Of a DNA stretch of 32,000 nucleotides, positions 11,691 through 19,921 are shown one piece after another (the stretch's first letter is position 1; every line of letters starts with the position of its first letter). The stretch covers positions 4,106,497-4,138,496 of the forward strand of contig NC_003902.1 in assembly GCF_000007145.1 (NCBI RefSeq), in the 5' to 3' direction. The position numbers and the translations under genes were made by a program. The notes under the pieces are model-generated. The model worked only from the letters and a program-made list of their open reading frames with translations. It made no database searches and was not told the DNA's origin. This DNA comes from Xanthomonas campestris pv. campestris str. ATCC 33913. Lineage in GTDB: Bacteria; Pseudomonadota; Gammaproteobacteria; Xanthomonadales; Xanthomonadaceae.

Positions 11691-12475
11691 GCAGCATGCC
11701 ACCGCGCTTCCTTGTTGCTACCAAGTGCGCAGATCCACGTGGTCAGCAAGTTAGTGCGTGGCGTTACTTGGCAAGGAAACGATCCACTGCGGCTAGTTGC
11801 GGCGCATGCCCGGCTGAGCGGAACTTCCGCAAGGCATGCCGCCGACATTACCCTGCCTCGCAGAGGGCCATCCAACACAGGCGGCGCGTCGCTTCAAAGT
11901 AAGGTCAACCACCGCCATCACTGGCAGGCGCTTCTGACATCGCCTGCTGCTGAGAGCGCGCAGCAAGCGTCATCACCGGGCCCGTAGGCTCCTTGTCGAT
12001 CTCCTCGCGCTCGCGCTGGAACTGCACCATCTCCTGCGCCCGTTGCTGATCCATTGCCTCCGTTTTTTGCAAGGTTTCAGTCATGCCGGGCGATGGCGTA
12101 TTGAGCGCGGTTTCCGAATGGAATCCCAGCGTTTTGCCAAAGACAAAGGCCACATCATCTTGGATGGTTACTTTCCGGAGTTCATCCGCGCGCTCAATCC
12201 CCGATTCTTTGACGGCTTGAAGCACTTCGGCCGTTTTCTCATCAGATGTGCCCCTGGGGAGCTGTGCCTGGATGGCGGAGAACAATGCGTAATCCCGATG
12301 ATCAGAGGGAAACGCCTGCTGAGCGACATCTTGGGATGGCCTGATTTGCTCGACCCGATCCTCATCGTTCACGCCTGCGTTTGAACGCCCGCCAGTCCCA
12401 CCAAAGCCAGGCGATGACGTATAGGAGGACGACGCGCGCTCAGGCAAGACGATCTGTGCCGGCACTTCGCTCTGA

Positions 12476-12511
12476 GTTGGCGTTGGCGTTGGCGTTGGCG
12501 TTGGCGTTGGC
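12476..12511. repeat. Hexanucleotide SSR (GTTGGC)x6 encoding a (PT)6 linker
   Basis: Six perfect tandem copies were counted on the plus strand. They translate on the minus strand as PPTPTPTPTPTPTQ inside the effector pseudogene. A shorter relative (tggcgttggcgttggcg, ~13765-13785) encodes APTPTPQ. Confidence 0.9.
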
Positions 12512-13434
12512 GGCAATGTTGCCTGCATCGCTTCTTGCTGCTCTGCCTGCAATGGAACAGCCGATGGCGCATCGTTCTGTGGCGTGCCTACTCGGGCTTG
12601 CTGCTCGCTGCCCTGCTCCACCGGCCCATTTGCCGATGCCGGCGCTATGGGTTTCAAAGCTTCTCGGCGCGCATGTTGTGCCTGGGACAACGCTTCATCC
12701 AGCTCTTGTCCGGCAACGCCCGTTGCCGGCAAACCTTGGTCTTGCTGGAACTGTCTCACGGCATGTTCGGTCTCCGAACCGTAGTGCCCGTCTTGCGGCA
12801 CGGCCTGCCCGTTTGGACCACGCGCATCTACTTGCTGCAAGCGATATTGCAAGAACTCGACTTCTTGCCCCCGGTCGCCCAGGCGCAGCCCTTCCACTTC
12901 ATGCGATGAGCGCGGTGTTGCGGCAGCTGCCTGAGTAGGCGCTTGATTGGGGACGGTCGAAGCGGATGATGCTGATCCAAGGTTCGGCGCAGATGCGCCC
13001 GCCAAGGCTGGGCCCACTGCCTCTGCCCTCGGCTGGACTGCGCCGGCTGTCGGGGGTGCCCCAACCTCAGGTGCTTGGGTCTCTTGGGGTTCTCGTTGCG
13101 GGACAGGTTCGGGCTTCGGTTCGGCAGGCTTGGCGACCGGGCGCACGTCTTCCTGCAGAGACGCGTTGACGGATGTAGCCACCGCGACAGGAGCAGGCGT
13201 TGCCGCCTCCGCAGCAGCAGGCGCATCGGGTGTACGTGCAACGTCTCGATCTCGCTGCGCATCAATGGCCGCCTGAGGTGCTCGGGTTTCATCCACATGC
13301 GGGGCGGTAACCGTTGTCGCCGCAAAGCTTGCGGCTTGCTGCGCTTCTTGCGTAGGCACACCTTGCCGATTAGCCTCCCGCAACGCTTGCTCGTAAGCAT
13401 CGCGCTCTTGGGGCGACTGTGCGTCAATGCGTTG

Positions 13435-13450
13435 CTCCGGCGCTCCGGCG
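13435..13450. repeat. 8-bp perfect tandem duplication (ctccggcg x2; CGCCGGAG x2 on the coding strand) causing the effector frameshift
   Basis: The plus strand at 13435-13450 reads ctccggcgctccggcg. Both reading frames encode …GAPE across it. Deleting one copy fuses …SLRQEQPPSAGAPE to QRIDAQSPQERDAYEQALREANRQG… in frame. Confidence 0.9.
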
Positions 13451-15736
13451 CACCGGCCGAAGGCGGTTGCTCCTGCCGAAGTGACTGCACCTCGCTGAGT
13501 GCCTGATGGATATCGTCGGTGCTGGTCATTGCTGCAACACGCACCGCACCATCGGCGTCACGGCTCAGATGCTGGATGGGGCTGTACACCGAGTATTGCG
13601 CGGTCGTATCACGCTGCAACGCCAAAGAGCTGGTCGCGGCATCGATCCCGTTTGCCTCACGTGTCCGTTGCACCGCAAGCTGGATCGCGCCTGCGGTCTG
13701 GGCATTGGGCGCAACGCCATAGGCGGCATAGGCCGCTTCGGTATTGGCCTGATCTTGTTGCTGTGGCGTTGGCGTTGGCGCTTGCCTTGCCGGCATCTGT
13801 GCCAACGCCTGCCCGTGCTGCTCCAATGCCGGTTGCAAGCGTTCGCGCGTTGCATTGAGTTCTGACGGGACATTGCCTTCGGCAGCAACACCATCATGCC
13901 GCCACTGATCTTGCGTATCGCGCTGATACTGCTTGCCGTCCGAGGCTTGCAGTGAGTCTGGGTTCAAGGCTGCCTGCACGGCTGATGGCACGGGGCCAAA
14001 ATCGTCCCATCCATTGCGCTGATAGGCAGTCTGATAAGTCGCTGCAATTGCAGCTGGGCCACGGGCAATGTTGGCGTCCACCACCTGGGCTGCTTGTTGA
14101 TCCAACCCGGCACTGCGCTCGGGGCTTGCCGGATCAACCGTCCAGACGGGCCGCTCGTTCCTATCGACTTCGTCGGCGATCATCCGGGACCACTGGCCAC
14201 TTGCCGGATCATGCCGCCAATCCCGTGCGTAAAGATGCGCAGCATCTGCCTCACTGGATGGCTGCACATAGGGGTTACTGGGTTGCACCTTGCCAAGCGC
14301 CTGCTCGGTCGCTTCGCTACTGGCGTGATAGTTCAGCTCGCGCGCTTTTTCGGGCAGTGCGAACATGGCCTGCTTCTGCGGTGCATCGACGCTATCGTTG
14401 GGAAGATCGGCCTTTTCTTGGCGCAACCACTGGTTGCCATTGAACTCCCAGCTCACGCCCTGCTTGTCAGTTTGTGTATAGATCTGGCGGTTGTCCCAGA
14501 GCGTCACGGCCTTGTCGGCAGCAGCACTGAACAGATAACCATCGGCCACCACCAGCGCGACGGGCCCGGCGCCGGTTGTGCCAACCACGGCAGCGGCGGC
14601 GGTGCCTCCCGCCCAGCCGCCTATGCCTCGGGCACTAAAGTGCAGCGCTTCTGACCGCGCAGCGGTAAGGTTGTCTTGCGCCAACAGCGTGCCAACACGC
14701 TCTCCGGTTTGCGACGCATCGTAGGCAGTGGCGGCAACGCCCAAACCCGCAAGCCCTGCTGTCATCCCGGCGCGACGCAAGCCTGGGATCTCCGGCTCAG
14801 GCACAGGCACGCGTGCAGGCGGAGCCCCTGGCCGCACGAGTTCATCAATGGTGGCAATGCCTTCCAGCCGGCTGTTCACGCCGTCACTGACGTGTAGCTC
14901 GGCGTGCTCAGCAAGCACTTGCTCCTGAACGGCGGGGGCGGCGTTGGGGATGTCTTGCACATGCGCCGGTAGATCGCGGTGCCAATCGACCTGTTGTTGC
15001 CAGCTTTCGCGCAGTACTTGGGTGACCGCTGGATCCTTGAACCACGCATTGCGCGCCGCTTCCAGTGCCTGCCCGGGCGGACGTGCATCGGTGCGGCTAT
15101 CGTAAACCTCGGCACCCTGGCGGTTGAAGATGCGTACGGGCGCCGTGGTCTGGGCATGCACCGTGTCCAGGCTGATCGGCAGCCTGGTGTAGACGACCTC
15201 GCGATGACTTTCGGGCACGTAGCGGCCGTAGCCTTCCCGATCGAGCTGCTGAGAAAACCTGGAATCGACGCCATGCTCGCTTTCCAGCTTGTGCGCGGCC
15301 ATTGCACGCACCTCGACGTCATAGCCGCGCGATTGCAGATCCTTGATCAGTTCCGCGCTCCACTGGCCATTGCTGAGCGTGGTGTCGAAGATCAGGTTCT
15401 TCTTGCCTTCGATAGTGACTTGCAGCAGTTCATCGGCCCATTGGCTGGCATCGGAGTGGGTGTAGCCAGACCAGGTGTAGGGGTGGGCATTGCGCAGGGC
15501 GGACACTTCGGGGTGAGCGTTACGCAATTCATCCGGATCGATCAGGACGACATCCCTGCCTAGCTCGACGTCTGCAGCTCTTGCGAGACTTCCTTTTCCC
15601 GAGCCAGGTTGCCCAGCGAGGATGATCGCCTTGGGGTGTTCGAAGGACGTTTTTGTCTCCAGTGCGGCATCATCAAGAATCTTCTGCTCAAATAATCTGC
15701 GATGCTCGACATTATCGAGACGGGATTCCTTTTCGT

Positions 15737-16381
15737 TCATATCAAAGACTCCTTGTGCGTCTCGATGTAATTCCACAGCTGATCTAGATCCGACATTCCG
15801 CGATTTCTCGATCTTGCATGGCGGGTCAAACGTTCTTTTTCTTCAGCCATTTTTACGGCGTTAGCATCACCGCTAGCGTGCGCAAGATCGAGTTCCTCGC
15901 GGGCTTCGGAGATGAAAGACTCAAGCCTTCCTTCCAACGCCCAGATGGCTCCATCGAACGGAATCAACGGATTTGGCTTCCTGATGTAATCATCGAGAAC
16001 ATCCTGCAAGCGCTGAATCAACTCGGGATAGTCTCTCAGTAGCTCACGCAATTTCTGCGGCACAGGAGGCGCAGGCAAGCCGTTTTCAATGGAGGGAGGC
16101 ATGGGCTTCGACATGGCAGGATCTTTCCTCTTAGGCATGGGCACGCGCGGCGCAGTGTGCGCATTGTCATCCAGTGCAGGGACCGGCTGCACCGGCTGCA
16201 CCCACGGTGCCGGCTTGGGTTTGCGCTTGACATGCTCCAGCAAGCCGCCATGCGGCAGCGGGCCTAGCTCGCGCTGCGTGCGTTCATTGATCAGTTGCAA
16301 ATCGCGCAGCAGCTGTGCGGCACGCGTCTCGGCTAAGCGCTGCGCCAATGCGATGTAATGGGAGCCTGATGTATCGCTCAT
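15737..16381 (-). CDS. Hypothetical 214-aa cytoplasmic protein, candidate cognate immunity/antitoxin for the zeta-like toxin
   Basis: Has an ATG (complement of 16379-16381) with a GAAGGAAG SD. Its stop TGA overlaps the toxin ATG (ATGA at 15737-15740). No signal peptide or lipobox. A Pro-rich middle is followed by a helical-looking C-terminal half (PVPQKLRELLRDYPELIQRLQDVLDDY…ISEAREELD) shared with the 140-aa ORF upstream. No family recognised. Confidence 0.6.
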   Translation of the reverse strand: MSDTSGSHYIALAQRLAETRAAQLLRDLQLINERTQRELGPLPHGGLLEHVKRKPKPAPWVQPVQPVPALDDNAHTAPRVPMPKRKDPAMSKPMPPSIENGLPAPPVPQKLRELLRDYPELIQRLQDVLDDYIRKPNPLIPFDGAIWALEGRLESFISEAREELDLAHASGDANAVKMAEEKERLTRHARSRNRGMSDLDQLWNYIETHKESLI

Positions 16382-16503
16382 ATGGGCTTCCTTCTGCAGA
16401 TGCCGCTGGAGAATAACCGGCTTCAGTAAAATGGTGTCGCATGGCTAACATTGCGATATCCATTTTTTAATATTCTATTGTAAATGCGATCCATCAATGC
16501 CGA

Positions 16504-16926
16504 TCATTTTCCTCGTGAGACGAGGTATTTAACGACAGGAGAAAGATCGGAAAAATAGCCGCGGTATACTGGAAATGCTGAAAAATCCCTGAACTTTTTT
16601 TCAGCTAATTCGCAAGAAAAATCGATTTTTATCTGGTCAACTGCTGATTTAGAAAGCCTAACGTCTTTAGCTACAGCATCAAGTTCTTGCGATGCTTCAA
16701 TGTGAAATTTATTTAATTCAGCACAAACCATATCCATCAACCTTCTGTAAGCCGGGCCGTATTTCTCCCTCGAGAATTCGCCACCTGGCAATTTTTCCGC
16801 GAATTGATCAAAAGCATCTTGCAACCTCGATAAATATGTAGGATAACTTCTTAATATTTTGTATAACTCCAGTGGGATTGGGTAGCGTAAATCACGATCC
16901 AGAGGTTCGTTTTCATCGACTAGCAT
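16504..16926 (-). CDS. Hypothetical 140-aa protein, paralog of the C-terminal half of the 214-aa ORF (second immunity-like gene)
   Basis: Has an ATG (complement of 16924-16926) preceded by GGAAGGAG. It lies in the most AT-rich stretch of the window. The shared motif is PIPLELYKILRSYPTYLSRLQDAFDQF … IEASQELD, against PVPQKLRELLRDYPELIQRLQDVLDDY … SEAREELD in the 214-aa ORF. No signal peptide. Confidence 0.6.
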   Translation of the reverse strand: MLVDENEPLDRDLRYPIPLELYKILRSYPTYLSRLQDAFDQFAEKLPGGEFSREKYGPAYRRLMDMVCAELNKFHIEASQELDAVAKDVRLSKSAVDQIKIDFSCELAEKKFRDFSAFPVYRGYFSDLSPVVKYLVSRGK

Positions 16927-17013: not shown

Positions 17014-18024
17014 TTACCATGCCGCCGTAGACATTAAGGCCTTAACTTCTGCTTTAGGTAACAGCCGCTTCGTGAAGTAAGCATCTTCGTAATACTTGAT
17101 CTTCTCGCAGAGCACCGGGCTTGGGATGCCTTCATAGAGGAAGACTTCCTTATCAAAACCCATCGCCTTCAACTCCTGCGGCAGCATCAAGGCGCGGCGC
17201 TGCTCGGTTTCTGAATAAGACACGCTGCTTTGCTTGCCACTGGTTTGCGACTTGTTCTTCTTGCGCACCGTGGTGTAGCCGAGCATGTCCGAGTAGTCGT
17301 TGGCGTCTTGCTGCTCGCGCGGGGCATAGACGATTTGCAAGGCGTGGTTGGTGATGATGGTGCGCGAGACATCCTTGCCATAGGTCGCGTCCAGCTGCGC
17401 CATGCTCTGGATGATCGGTAGCAAGCGAATGTTGTAGCCGGCCATGTAGCTCACCGCGCTTGCAATGATGTCGACCCGGCCGATGGACGTGAACTCGTCC
17501 ATCAGCAACAAACACTGGTGTTCGAGCACCGGGTTGTTCTGCGGCAGCTCTTTGGTGTTGAGGTTGATGAGCTGACTAAACAGCAAGTTGATCAACAGGC
17601 GGCTTTCGGCAAGCTTGTTCGGCTGGATGCCGATGTAGATGCTCATCTTCTTCTTGCGCACATCAGTCAGCAGGAAGTCGTTGTCGCTGGTTGACGCATC
17701 CAGGATCGGATTGATGAACTGGTTGAGCGGTTCCTTGAACGTGCCCATGATCGAGGCGAAGGTCTCTTCGGCTTGCGAGAGCAAATTGTCAAAGGCTGTC
17801 TTTGCGTCACGACCCAGGAAGTCGCGCTGCGAGAGCTTTTTGAGGTAGCCCTTCAAGTCGCTGCCATCTCCCGACGACACGCGATAGAGCATTCCAAGGG
17901 TTGGAAACATCCAGGTGTCTTTGGGGTGCTCGCGCTTGATCTGATCATCGAGGCTATCGAACAGATAGAGCGTAAACGCCATGAAGGCGTTGCGGGCCTG
18001 GCTCACCCAGAACTTTTGGGCGTC
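17014..18024 (-). pseudogene. virD4: virD4/traG-type T4SS coupling protein, C-terminal fragment (IS-disrupted)
   Basis: Part of track ORF 17014..18225. From codon GAC at 18024 it reads DAQKFWVSQARNAFMAFTLYLF … LLLMDEFTSIGRVD (Walker B-like) … NIRLLPIIQSMAQL … MLPQELKAMG, typical of the TraG/VirD4 C-terminal two thirds. Residues encoded by 18025-18225 are read-through from the IS. Confidence 0.85.
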
Positions 18025-18056
18025 CGACGTCCCCCCGCCCTGAGTAGCGGCCTGGT

Positions 18057-18908
18057 TTAGAGTCCGGGGTTGATGATATCGGTGTTTGCCAGATGTTGGG
18101 CATAAGCAGCCGGGGTCATGCCGCCGATTGCTTTCTTGGGTCGGTCCTCGTTGTATTCGCGTCGCCAGCGTTCGATTTCGGTGCGCGCGTGCAGTAACGT
18201 CGGGAACCAGTGCTCGTTGAGGCATTCGTCGCGCAGTCGGCCGTTGAAGGATTCGACGTAGGCGTTCTGGTTCGGTTTGCCTGGCTGGATGAGCCGTAGT
18301 TGCACATTACGGGCATGCGCCCAGGCGACCATCGCCTTACCGCAAAACTCCTTGCCGTTGTCAGTGCGGATCACCTTCGGCAAACCGCGACTGTGCGCCA
18401 GTCGGTCCAGCACGCGCGTCACCCCGTGCCCGGAGATCGCGCGCTCCACTTCGATGGCGACCACTTCGTGGGTTGCATCGTCCACGATCACCAGACACTT
18501 GATCACCCGGCCTTCGGCGGTGCGGTCGAACACAAAGTCCATCGACCACACCTGGTTGGCCTGCGATGGCCGCAGCAGCGGTTGACGCTCGCCTATTGGG
18601 ACCTTCTTGCGCTTGCGGCGGCGCACTTGCAGCTGCTGCTCGCGGTACAACCGTTCCACACGCTTGTAGTTCACGATGCGCCCTTCTTGCCGCAATTTGA
18701 GATAGATCATTCCCACGCCATAGCGGCGATGGCGATGTGCCAACGCACAGATGCGTTCGCGCAGTTCGCCATTGCGATCTTCGCGCGGGCAATACCGCAG
18801 TGCACTGGCGCTCATGCCGATCACTGCCAACGCACGACGCTCGCTGGCACCACGCCCGATCCATTCGCGCACCAGCGTCCGACGCGCCGGTGCGCTTACC
18901 ACTTTTTT
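18057..18908 (-). CDS. IS3-family transposase OrfB (DDE integrase core), expressed as OrfAB by -1 frameshift
   Basis: The slippery heptamer A AAA AAG is the complement of 18902-18908, and the OrfB frame is -1 relative to OrfA there. The product reads KKVVSAPARRTL… WSMDFVFD … IRTDNGKEF … YVESFNGRLRDECLN (D, D, E region). The first ~58 codons of track ORF 18057..19082 merely overlap orfA. Confidence 0.88.
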   Translation of the reverse strand, partial: KKVVSAPARRTLVREWIGRGASERRALAVIGMSASALRYCPREDRNGELRERICALAHRHRRYGVGMIYLKLRQEGRIVNYKRVERLYREQQLQVRRRKRKKVPIGERQPLLRPSQANQVWSMDFVFDRTAEGRVIKCLVIVDDATHEVVAIEVERAISGHGVTRVLDRLAHSRGLPKVIRTDNGKEFCGKAMVAWAHARNVQLRLIQPGKPNQNAYVESFNGRLRDECLNEHWFPTLLHARTEIERWRREYNEDRPKKAIGGMTPAAYAQHLANTDIINPGL

Positions 18909-19165
18909 CGCAGTGCATCCTTGATCAGGTCGTTCTCGAACAGCTGCTCGGCCAGCAACTTCTTCAGCCGCGCGTTCTCGGACTCTAGGTCCTTGAGCCG
19001 CTTGGCATCGGGCACGCTCATCCCACCGAACTTGCTGCGCCACAGGTAGTACGAGGCCTCGCTGAAGCCATGCCGCCGGCACAGGTCCTTGATGGCGACG
19101 CCGCTTTCGGCTTCGCGCAGAAAGCCGATGACCTGCTCGTCAGTAAAACGTTTCTTCACGTCCAA
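18896..19165 (-). CDS. IS3-family transposase OrfA (HTH)
   Basis: 89 aa: MDVKKRFTDEQVIGFLREAESGVAIKDLCRRHGFSEASYYLWRSKFGGMSVPDAKRLKDLESENARLKKLLAEQ, the classic IS3/IS407-group OrfA with a leucine zipper. It ends …CGA AAA AAG TGG TAA. Confidence 0.9.
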   Translation of the reverse strand: MDVKKRFTDEQVIGFLREAESGVAIKDLCRRHGFSEASYYLWRSKFGGMSVPDAKRLKDLESENARLKKLLAEQLFENDLIKDALRKKW

Positions 19166-19227
19166 TCTCCTCGGGGTAGGGAATTGGACTCCAAACTGAG
19201 GCGCTACTCAAAATTGGGGGGACGTCG

Positions 19228-19921
19228 CGTCAGAGCCATCCGGGTAGAGCATCGCCGCAACACTCATCAGATCCGACACGCGAAACGCCGGGTCCGGTGA
19301 GATATAGCTGAGCGGGTTCCAACGGTGGGTGCGCCCGTCTTCCGCGAACGGGTTAAACAAAAAGACTTCCTGGCCTTGGCTCTTGCGCCAACCCGAGGTC
19401 AGGTCGAAATTCTCCTGCTTGATGTCCAGAACGACCACCGATCCTTGGTAGTCGAGCAAATTGGGAATGACGATGCCCACGCCCTTGCCCGAACGCGTGG
19501 GCGCGGCCAGGATCACAAACTGCTGACCAGGCAAGCGCACCACCTTGCCGCCGTGCTTGCCAACCACAATGCCGGTTGGCGACGGTTTGAGCATGTCCTT
19601 CTTGGCCAGATCACTGCCGGAGGCAAAGCGCGCGTCGCCATGCAATGCGGCCGCCTTTGGCTTGAACAGCGGGATCAGCAGCGCGATCCAGGCCAGCAGC
19701 GGCACGCCGAAGCCTATGGCACCAGCCAGCTTGATCTTGCTGGCATAGGGAGCGAACTGCGGGAGGTCGAGCGCTTTGACGTAAGACCAGTAAGTGTCGA
19801 CGCTGAGCGGCGCAGCCACCTTCAACAGCATCAAGATCAACTGACCGGAGAAGAAAATTCCCGCGATTGCTGCGAGCAGCAACAGGCCGAATGCAGCGAC
19901 TATCCTGAGATTACTGCTCAC
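19228..19921 (-). pseudogene. virD4: virD4/traG-type T4SS coupling protein, N-terminal fragment (IS-disrupted)
   Basis: GTG start at 19921 with AAAGGAA upstream. It has two N-terminal TM segments (IVAAFGLLLLAAIAGIFF; AIGFGVPLLAWIALLIPLF), the Walker A ILAAPTRSGKGVGIVIPNLL, and then VVVLDIKQENF. The sequence ends …MLYPDGSDA at the IS junction. The track ORF runs 7 more codons into the IS, to 19208. Deleting the IS plus one TSD copy restores a 566-aa ORF. Confidence 0.88.

Follow-up and report, generated by a model that had tools for sequence, protein, structure and literature searches.

A putative cytoplasmic immunity protein family encoded directly upstream of a clade of zeta-type kinase toxins in Xanthomonas and related bacteria

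The window analysed here is a stretch of 32,000 nucleotides of Xanthomonas campestris pv. campestris ATCC 33913 (contig NC_003902.1). Its minus strand carries, at positions 15737–16381 (stop codon included), an open reading frame (ORF) for a 214-aa protein that starts with the ATG at 16381 and is the putative cognate immunity gene of the zeta-type toxin gene lying directly downstream. Direct reading of the sequence places a Shine-Dalgarno-like GAAGGAAG (16387–16394, minus strand) 5 nt 5' of this ATG. The two genes share the tetranucleotide ATGA (15737–15740): the minus strand reads ...TTG ATA TGA in one frame and ATG AAC... in the other, one base out of register, with the TGA stop of the 214-aa ORF at 15739–15737 and the toxin ATG at 15740–15738. 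The Shine-Dalgarno sequence of the toxin gene, AAGGAG (15749–15754), falls within the final codons of the immunity gene at a distance of 8 nt from the toxin ATG. Both the shared ATGA and the embedded AAGGAG had been pointed out in a first-pass annotation of this DNA, and both are present in the sequence as described there. A sequence scan found no terminator-like sites on the minus strand between 11700 and 17200; the same promoter and terminator scan, which says little, found no promoter-like sites and one plus-strand terminator-like site.

The 214-aa protein is 100% identical to a hypothetical protein of X. campestris pv. raphani, is kept across genera, and retrieved 46 homologs in a homolog search. 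Because the protein is conserved across genera and the 4-nt overlap recurs at 29 of the 43 immunity-zeta junctions found in independent genome loci, the arrangement of the ORFs is not due to chance. The toxin gene, as now read, encodes 970 aa from its ATG at 15740 (12828–15740, minus strand), and residues 25–217 form a zeta/PezT-type kinase domain (15090–15668, minus strand; Pfam Zeta_toxin, E=3e-60). Its nearest relatives of solved structure are zeta (1GVN, E=6e-20) and PezT (2P5T), with which its Walker A sequence, GQPGSGKG, and its IDPD segment align.

Linkage between the two genes was surveyed in both directions. In the forward survey, one genome per species was taken and the peptide pattern was drawn only from the C-terminal immunity domain of the 214-aa protein. 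This gave 56 loci, all of them in Lysobacterales or in unclassified proteobacterial metagenome-assembled genomes, covering the genera Xanthomonas, Stenotrophomonas, Lysobacter, Luteimonas, Arenimonas, Pseudoxanthomonas, Solilutibacter and Vulcaniibacterium and also Rhodanobacteraceae. It can be seen that the immunity domain is encoded directly 5' of a zeta-domain gene at 43 of the 56 loci; at 40 a full-length zeta domain starts about -11 to +18 nt from the stop of the last immunity copy, and a further 3 have a zeta fragment at the same place. The reverse survey was made on metagenome contigs with patterns drawn only from the zeta domain, and the 80 loci obtained were then searched with a hidden Markov model of the immunity domain. 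Where the zeta domain was at least 41% identical to that of the window toxin, the immunity domain lay directly upstream on the same strand at every locus (42/42), including all 39 that had ≥45% identity and ≥350 nt of sequence upstream. At 26–39% identity it was found in this position at none (0/38). These results indicate that the partnership is essentially one-to-one with a single clade of zeta kinases and does not extend to zeta toxins in general. No other neighbour of the toxin is conserved. Across 40 pairs, identity between immunity domains correlates with identity between the corresponding zeta domains (Pearson 0.56), which is weak evidence because co-inheritance alone would yield such a correlation. 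The first-pass annotation had proposed a neighbourhood survey and had regarded homologs sitting predominantly away from toxin genes as speaking against an immunity or antitoxin role; the linkage proved to be strict in both directions.

Alignments show that only the C-terminal ~110 residues (approximately aa 105–214) define the family. A full scan of 1.84 billion representative proteins at E ≤0.001 gave 191 clusters at 50% identity, and most of these proteins are 110–125 aa long and consist of the domain alone. The N-terminal ~100 residues are an addition that is almost confined to Xanthomonas. Searches of Pfam and NCBIfam with the 214-aa protein and with a 140-aa protein encoded upstream (described below) gave no family match, PADLOC returned nothing for either, and Pfam-A searches of 58 family members produced only scattered single hits at E >0.01. 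When the PDB sequences were searched with a profile of the family, nothing scored below E=0.08, the matches were unrelated or at chance level, and none was an antitoxin. Foldseek comparison of an AlphaFold2 model with the PDB gave no match at E ≤0.001, the best being generic helical proteins (E ≥0.3), and neither epsilon (1GVN) nor PezA (2P5T) was among the 50 Foldseek matches listed. The view that the ORF belongs to no recognised family is therefore upheld by Pfam, NCBIfam, PADLOC, the PDB profile search and Foldseek. The accompanying suggestion of a new family stands as a candidate family, with the correction that the family unit comprises only residues ~105–214 and that most members are only about 115 aa long.

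The AlphaFold2 model, built from a 28-sequence alignment with a mean predicted local distance difference test score (pLDDT) of 80, divides the 214-aa protein into three parts, all encoded on the minus strand. A long N-terminal helix (aa 4–39, 16265–16372; pLDDT ~90) is part of a basic N-terminal module, residues 1–100 having a predicted isoelectric point (pI) of 9.9. It is followed by a proline-rich linker that is predicted to be disordered (aa 40–104, 16070–16264; pLDDT 40–59, 28% Pro). The C-terminal, family-defining domain (aa 105–214, 15740–16069; pLDDT >90) is a predicted helical bundle with helices at residues 109–114, 119–134, 141–170, 173–190 and 200–213, and its consensus in the alignments is LPxPPVPQxLRExLKDYPExIxRLQ...PxFExAIWALE...SEARxEL. 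A closely similar version of the conserved motif reads PPVPQKLRELLxDYPExIxRLQ...PFDxAIWALE...SEAREEL. The proline-rich linker ahead of a helical-looking C-terminal domain had been anticipated from the letters alone; residues 40–108 are 28% Pro, the string then quoted is present, and the helices are predicted with high confidence. The same holds for the cytoplasmic character of the protein. It contains no cysteine, so a lipobox is impossible, and its highest 19-residue Kyte-Doolittle mean is 0.79, so it has neither a signal peptide nor a membrane helix.

In two further Xanthomonas proteins, P0043 and P0046, the first ~92 residues match those of the window protein (61% identity), but the C-terminal domain is unrelated. 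Their genes lie directly 5' of a toxin that has a Tle1-like (PF09994) N-terminal domain instead of zeta, and the zeta and Tle1-like toxins have ~500 central residues in common (44% identity). In X. fragariae the zeta pair and the Tle1-like pair occupy one chromosomal position, before VirD4 and glucokinase genes, in different strains. Comparison of the two alleles by blastn shows a left homology arm formed by 119 bp upstream plus the first ~294 nt (~98 codons) of the partner gene (88% identity), and a right arm formed by the C-terminal part of the toxin, VirD4 and glk (93% identity). The variable segment between them is exactly the C-terminal domain of the partner plus the catalytic domain of the toxin. 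From these boundaries we conclude that specificity resides in the C-terminal domain of the partner and that the toxin and partner domains are replaced as one unit. The C-terminal domain of P0043/P0046 (loci L071–L074), which is ~170 aa long and contains cysteine, matched nothing in Pfam or PADLOC either; it is another putative immunity domain without classification.

The N-terminal module carries the motif LLRDLxxINxRTxRELGPLPxGGLPVQxKRKP, which is conserved in every ~200-aa member aligned and is also found in diverged copies from X. phaseoli, X. chitinilytica and metagenome contigs. Such conservation at the protein level argues for a function. A homolog search with the module alone returned only fragments. 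Lysobacter zeta toxins that have the same scaffold and C-terminal domain are paired with short partners that have no module, and the module is thus not needed for handling of the scaffold; for the same reason, binding of the module to the shared toxin scaffold was considered and rejected as unlikely. The module may act as a recombination arm, take part in autoregulation, or dock to the adjacent VirD4. A more specific proposal is that the C-terminal domain is an undescribed inhibitor fold for zeta/PezT kinases, acting in a mode unlike that of epsilon and PezA, and that the module is either a portable handle docking immunity domains to a common partner (the adjacent VirD4 paralog or the export machinery) or a built-in recombination arm of the cassette. 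We regard this combination as tentative, and on balance somewhat doubtful.

Copies of the immunity domain are often multiplied. At many loci 2–4 tandem immunity copies precede a single toxin. Solilutibacter contigs carry repeated units of one immunity copy plus a zeta N-terminal stub of ~77 residues, with ATGA at each junction; in Solilutibacter pythonis (loci L027, L029 and L050) stub units of this kind stand in tandem ahead of a single full-length toxin, a pattern suggesting that recombination has occurred repeatedly in the first ~230 nt of the toxin gene. In Stenotrophomonas (loci L052–L062) a subfamily of ~145 aa overlaps the end of a HigA-like helix-turn-helix gene, following small conserved ORFs and with no zeta toxin nearby, and S. 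maltophilia has up to three family loci per genome. These ~145-aa proteins are probably the products of orphan immunity genes. Arrays, orphan copies and toxin-stub units are as expected of immunity genes.

The window itself has a two-gene array, whose upstream member is a diverged paralog of the immunity domain, encoded by a 140-aa ORF (16504–16926, minus strand) and recognised from its motif and by hhalign. It carries the motif PxPxxLxxxLRxYPxxxxRLQ, has a 30-aa match at E=8e-7, and aligns with the family profile in hhalign at a probability of 95.8% over 66 columns; at the same position X. phaseoli has a clear second copy, 34% identical. The GC content of the ORF is 0.40, in a genome of 64% GC, and its GC content at third codon positions (GC3) is 0.34, compared with 0.56 for the C-terminal domain of the 214-aa gene and 0.92 for the housekeeping neighbour rodA. 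This contrast in GC3 marks the block as atypical for the X. campestris genome. The paralog is present on 351 contigs, mostly X. campestris records, and looks like a retained foreign orphan immunity gene.

Zeta and PezT are cytoplasmic kinases that act on UDP-N-acetylglucosamine (UDP-GlcNAc) and poison cell-wall synthesis, and they are lethal unless an inhibitor is co-expressed, as in epsilon/zeta and PezAT. Since such kinases are lethal without an inhibitor, and since the 214-aa gene is the only conserved neighbour of the toxin, a kinase-neutralising role is the natural one for its product. We therefore favour, with a probability of roughly 0.8, the view that the 214-aa protein acts in the cytoplasm as the cognate immunity protein of the downstream toxin with its zeta/PezT-type kinase domain, and is of the X-Tfi type that accompanies effectors (X-Tfe) of the Xanthomonadales antibacterial type IV secretion system (T4SS). 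Comparative genomics strongly supports a putative role of this kind. The core of the first-pass annotation, a candidate immunity or antitoxin gene coupled to a zeta-type toxin, has thus gained support from the two-way linkage, the arrays and orphans, the cassette exchange and the lack of any known family. In the mechanism that we propose, the immunity and toxin genes would be transcribed as one mRNA, and the helical C-terminal domain would bind the kinase domain in the cytoplasm of the producer and block it until the toxin is exported. The blocked kinase would then spare its cytoplasmic substrate, which by analogy with zeta/PezT would be UDP-GlcNAc. The same immunity protein would shield sister cells that receive the toxin, and orphan and arrayed copies could shield against non-self variants. 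The N-terminal helix and the proline-rich linker would lie outside the neutralising unit, as a module flanking an exchangeable cassette of immunity domain and toxin domain.

Several observations weigh against an assignment as cognate immunity protein. The searches revealed no resemblance, in sequence or in fold, to epsilon, to PezA or to immunity families already known, and an inhibitory mechanism therefore cannot be transferred by homology. When the 214-aa protein was fused to toxin residues 1–257 and folded as a single sequence without an alignment, the mean pLDDT was only 41, too low for the model to be informative. An intact adjacent zeta gene is missing from 13 of the 56 genome loci: 10 of these belong to the diverged ~145-aa Stenotrophomonas subfamily (33–43% identity), which follows a HigA-like gene with no toxin nearby, two (L038 and L043) are arrays for which no toxin was detected up to 150 nt away, and one (L025) is a degenerate array ridden with insertion sequences. 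We read the diverged Stenotrophomonas copies as orphans, but they could serve another role. Finally, the Pfam XVIPCD model matches neither the window toxin and its X. campestris pv. campestris counterparts nor the Lysobacter-type toxins, even at E values up to 10. Delivery of the window toxin by the X-T4SS is consequently deduced from its homologs and from the neighbouring VirD4.

An alternative that retains neutralisation is a bifunctional antitoxin resembling PezA, in which the C-terminal domain would neutralise the kinase and the basic N-terminal helix would bind the promoter of the operon and so autoregulate it, the locus being primarily a chromosomal addiction module rather than a weapon. 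Gene order and overlap are as in epsilon/zeta and PezAT, a long conserved helix lies within the basic first 100 residues, and in ATCC 33913 the kinase and its partner survive undamaged although the components for export are disrupted. However, neither Pfam nor NCBIfam detects a DNA-binding domain, and most family members have no N-terminal module at all. Toxins of this family, at 885–1330 aa and with XVIPCD or PG-binding domains, have the architecture of exported effectors and not of type II toxins. A search of a plasmid collection found no plasmid copies. Taken together, these points make a PezA-like module improbable.

The 214-aa protein might instead serve secretion, as a chaperone or adaptor in the manner of VirE1 with VirE2 or of the Eag and DUF4123 proteins of type VI secretion, keeping the toxin competent for export or passing it to VirD4, with immunity coming from another factor. 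In favour of this are its small size, its solubility and helical fold, and a gene that precedes that of its partner and is coupled to it; in Xanthomonas the pair adjoins a VirD4 gene, and the N-terminal module is common to the partners of two toxins that also have a common scaffold. Yet the C-terminal domain tracks the catalytic domain of the toxin and not the shared scaffold or the C-terminal signal, and Lysobacter toxins with the same scaffold and C-terminus make do with short partners that have no module. Orphan copies and multi-copy arrays without a toxin would be senseless for a chaperone, VirD4 lies within 6 kb at only 1 of the 56 genome loci, and there is no other conserved neighbour able to supply immunity. 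We consider a chaperone function distinctly unlikely. That the ORF is a functionally irrelevant passenger, such as a remnant kept for the toxin's ribosome-binding site and promoter-proximal sequence, is barely credible: the family has no annotation and the base composition is atypical, but the protein is conserved in at least 8 genera, some of its residues are invariant, its fold is predicted with confidence, its family forms 191 clusters at 50% identity, and orphan copies persist with no toxin downstream.

With the 214-aa protein taken as a putative immunity protein, its affinities with known systems can be set out. Like X-Tfi genes, the 214-aa gene is positioned immediately 5' of a large multi-domain effector gene, in the same orientation and probably on the same transcript; the taxonomic range, Lysobacterales, agrees as well, and homologous toxins carry Pfam XVIPCD. 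The protein has no lipoprotein signal, as expected with an effector domain that acts in the cytosol, and would fit the cytosolic subclass already described. Such a precedent exists in XAC3267, the X-Tfi of the cytosol-acting X-Tfe XAC3266 (an AHH nuclease), which is without a lipoprotein signal (PMC6536674). The statement in the first-pass annotation that the known X-Tfi are periplasmic lipoproteins thus does not hold, and a cytoplasmic X-Tfi is not new in principle. Unlike other X-Tfi, the 214-aa protein has no detectable sequence relation to any that has been described, it is built of a portable N-terminal module and a specificity domain that can be exchanged, and the C-terminal domain of the window toxin is not recognised by the XVIPCD model. 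Zeta toxin (PF06414) is listed among X-Tfe domains in a figure legend of Sgro et al. (2019; PMC6536674), and a 2024 mBio paper names zeta-toxin family members only as BLAST matches. A full-text literature search, whose coverage leaves out most subscription journals, found no paper characterising a zeta-type X-Tfe or its partner.

The likeness to epsilon of pSM19035 and to PezA of pneumococcal PezAT lies in a gene directly 5' of a zeta-family kinase gene, a similar supposed role, and a small helical protein that would be expected to neutralise its partner in the cytoplasm by direct binding. There is, however, no sequence similarity, the predicted bundle is longer, with 4–5 helices, than the three-helix bundle of these antitoxins, there is no PezA-type helix-turn-helix, and the partner here is an exported effector of ~1270 aa and not a type II toxin of ~250 aa. 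An earlier comparison with epsilon-zeta is therefore apt for gene order and inferred role, and fails for sequence and fold, as judged by Pfam, the PDB profile search and Foldseek. Immunity genes of polymorphic toxins (CdiI, RhsI and orphan arrays) offer a further parallel in their arrays of diverged immunity genes, toxin-stub units and replacement of toxin and immunity as a cassette. The orientation is reversed here, with the variable toxin domain N-terminal and the immunity gene upstream, and the left recombination arm accordingly lies inside the 5' part of the immunity gene itself. On this evidence the sequences support a putative immunity family, so far uncharacterised, that would serve a clade of zeta kinases associated with the T4SS, within a kind of effector and immunity pairing that, including cytosolic X-Tfi, is already known.

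Behind the kinase domain, the window toxin has a Gly/Ala-rich hydrophobic stretch at aa ~325–410 (~14510–14765, minus strand; GMTAGLAGLGVAATAY...GGWAGGTAAAAVVGTTGAGPVALVVADGY), identified by hydropathy. This stretch is conserved in the Tle1-like toxin, and homologs score weakly against Pfam glycine-zipper models; a possible role is insertion into the membrane so as to pass the N-terminal domain into the cytoplasm of the target. Comparison with the intact 1272-aa allele of pv. raphani shows that an 8-nt tandem duplication (GCGCCGGA twice; 13436–13451, minus strand) shifts the frame of the toxin gene, so that the frame now read is not authentic downstream of ~13436. Some X. campestris strains (L066) have the same duplication and a 2-nt deletion ~280 nt downstream (~13160) by which the frame is re-opened; in this type of allele roughly 90 codons are read outside the original frame. 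The authentic C-terminal part of the toxin is detached in the window (11905–13383, minus strand) and contiguous with the kinase in the intact alleles L063, L066 and L068. It contains a PG_binding_1 domain (12700–12873, minus strand; Pfam E=5e-14).

The C-terminal domain of the toxin (11908–12200) is common to zeta toxins of Xanthomonas, Lysobacter and Vulcaniibacterium (L021, L028, L030, L039 and L058) and is missed by Pfam XVIPCD; its pattern is D.A[LM]F..I....P......A......GI..A........D...V.G..PG......P.P....TL....A..QQ. It is 32% identical (E=4e-15) to a module in the Vulcaniibacterium toxin L058, where that module comes after a true XVIPCD. XVIPCD (PF20410) itself was found in the homologous toxins L004, L017, L045 and L058, from Rhodanobacter, Vulcaniibacterium and others. 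Direct comparison of the C-terminal domain with XVIPCD was not significant by pairwise BLASTP and gave E=0.011 with a probability of 4% by hhalign. The domain may be a divergent variant of the secretion signal. The VirD4 alongside, the homologs and the range of taxa make it likely that the window toxin is delivered by the X-T4SS.

The VirD4 coupling-protein gene (17014–19921, minus strand) is split by an IS3-family element into two fragments (19208–19921 and 17014–18225), both of which match Pfam T4SS-DNA_transf, TraG-D_C and TrwB_AAD_bind. The ORFs of the element lie at 18057–19165 (Pfam rve/HTH_21). In other strains VirD4 is intact (566 aa). The window VirD4 gene stands beside rodA/mrdA and not beside virB genes, and its product is only ~44% identical to the VirD4 proteins flanking the toxin loci of X. 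fragariae and X. cucurbitae; these VirD4 proteins may be stand-alone paralogs dedicated to particular effectors. The export route is thus broken in ATCC 33913, with VirD4 interrupted and the C-terminal part of the toxin detached. Neither the kinase domain nor the immunity gene is damaged, and the pair therefore now probably behaves like an addictive toxin-antitoxin module.

To our knowledge, zeta/PezT kinases have so far been studied with only two antidotes, epsilon and PezA, which are related to each other. The locus described here adds what would be a third antidote family, apparently unrelated to the other two and paired one-to-one with a clade of zeta kinases that the antibacterial T4SS of the Xanthomonadales apparently delivers. 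As a resource it provides a defined domain of ~110 aa, more than 80 natural pairs of toxin and immunity protein and a natural example of a cassette swap, and the pair is directly testable. It also bears on how a T4SS effector that is thought to enter the periplasm reaches a cytoplasmic target, and ~190 clusters now annotated as 'hypothetical protein' could gain a functional name.

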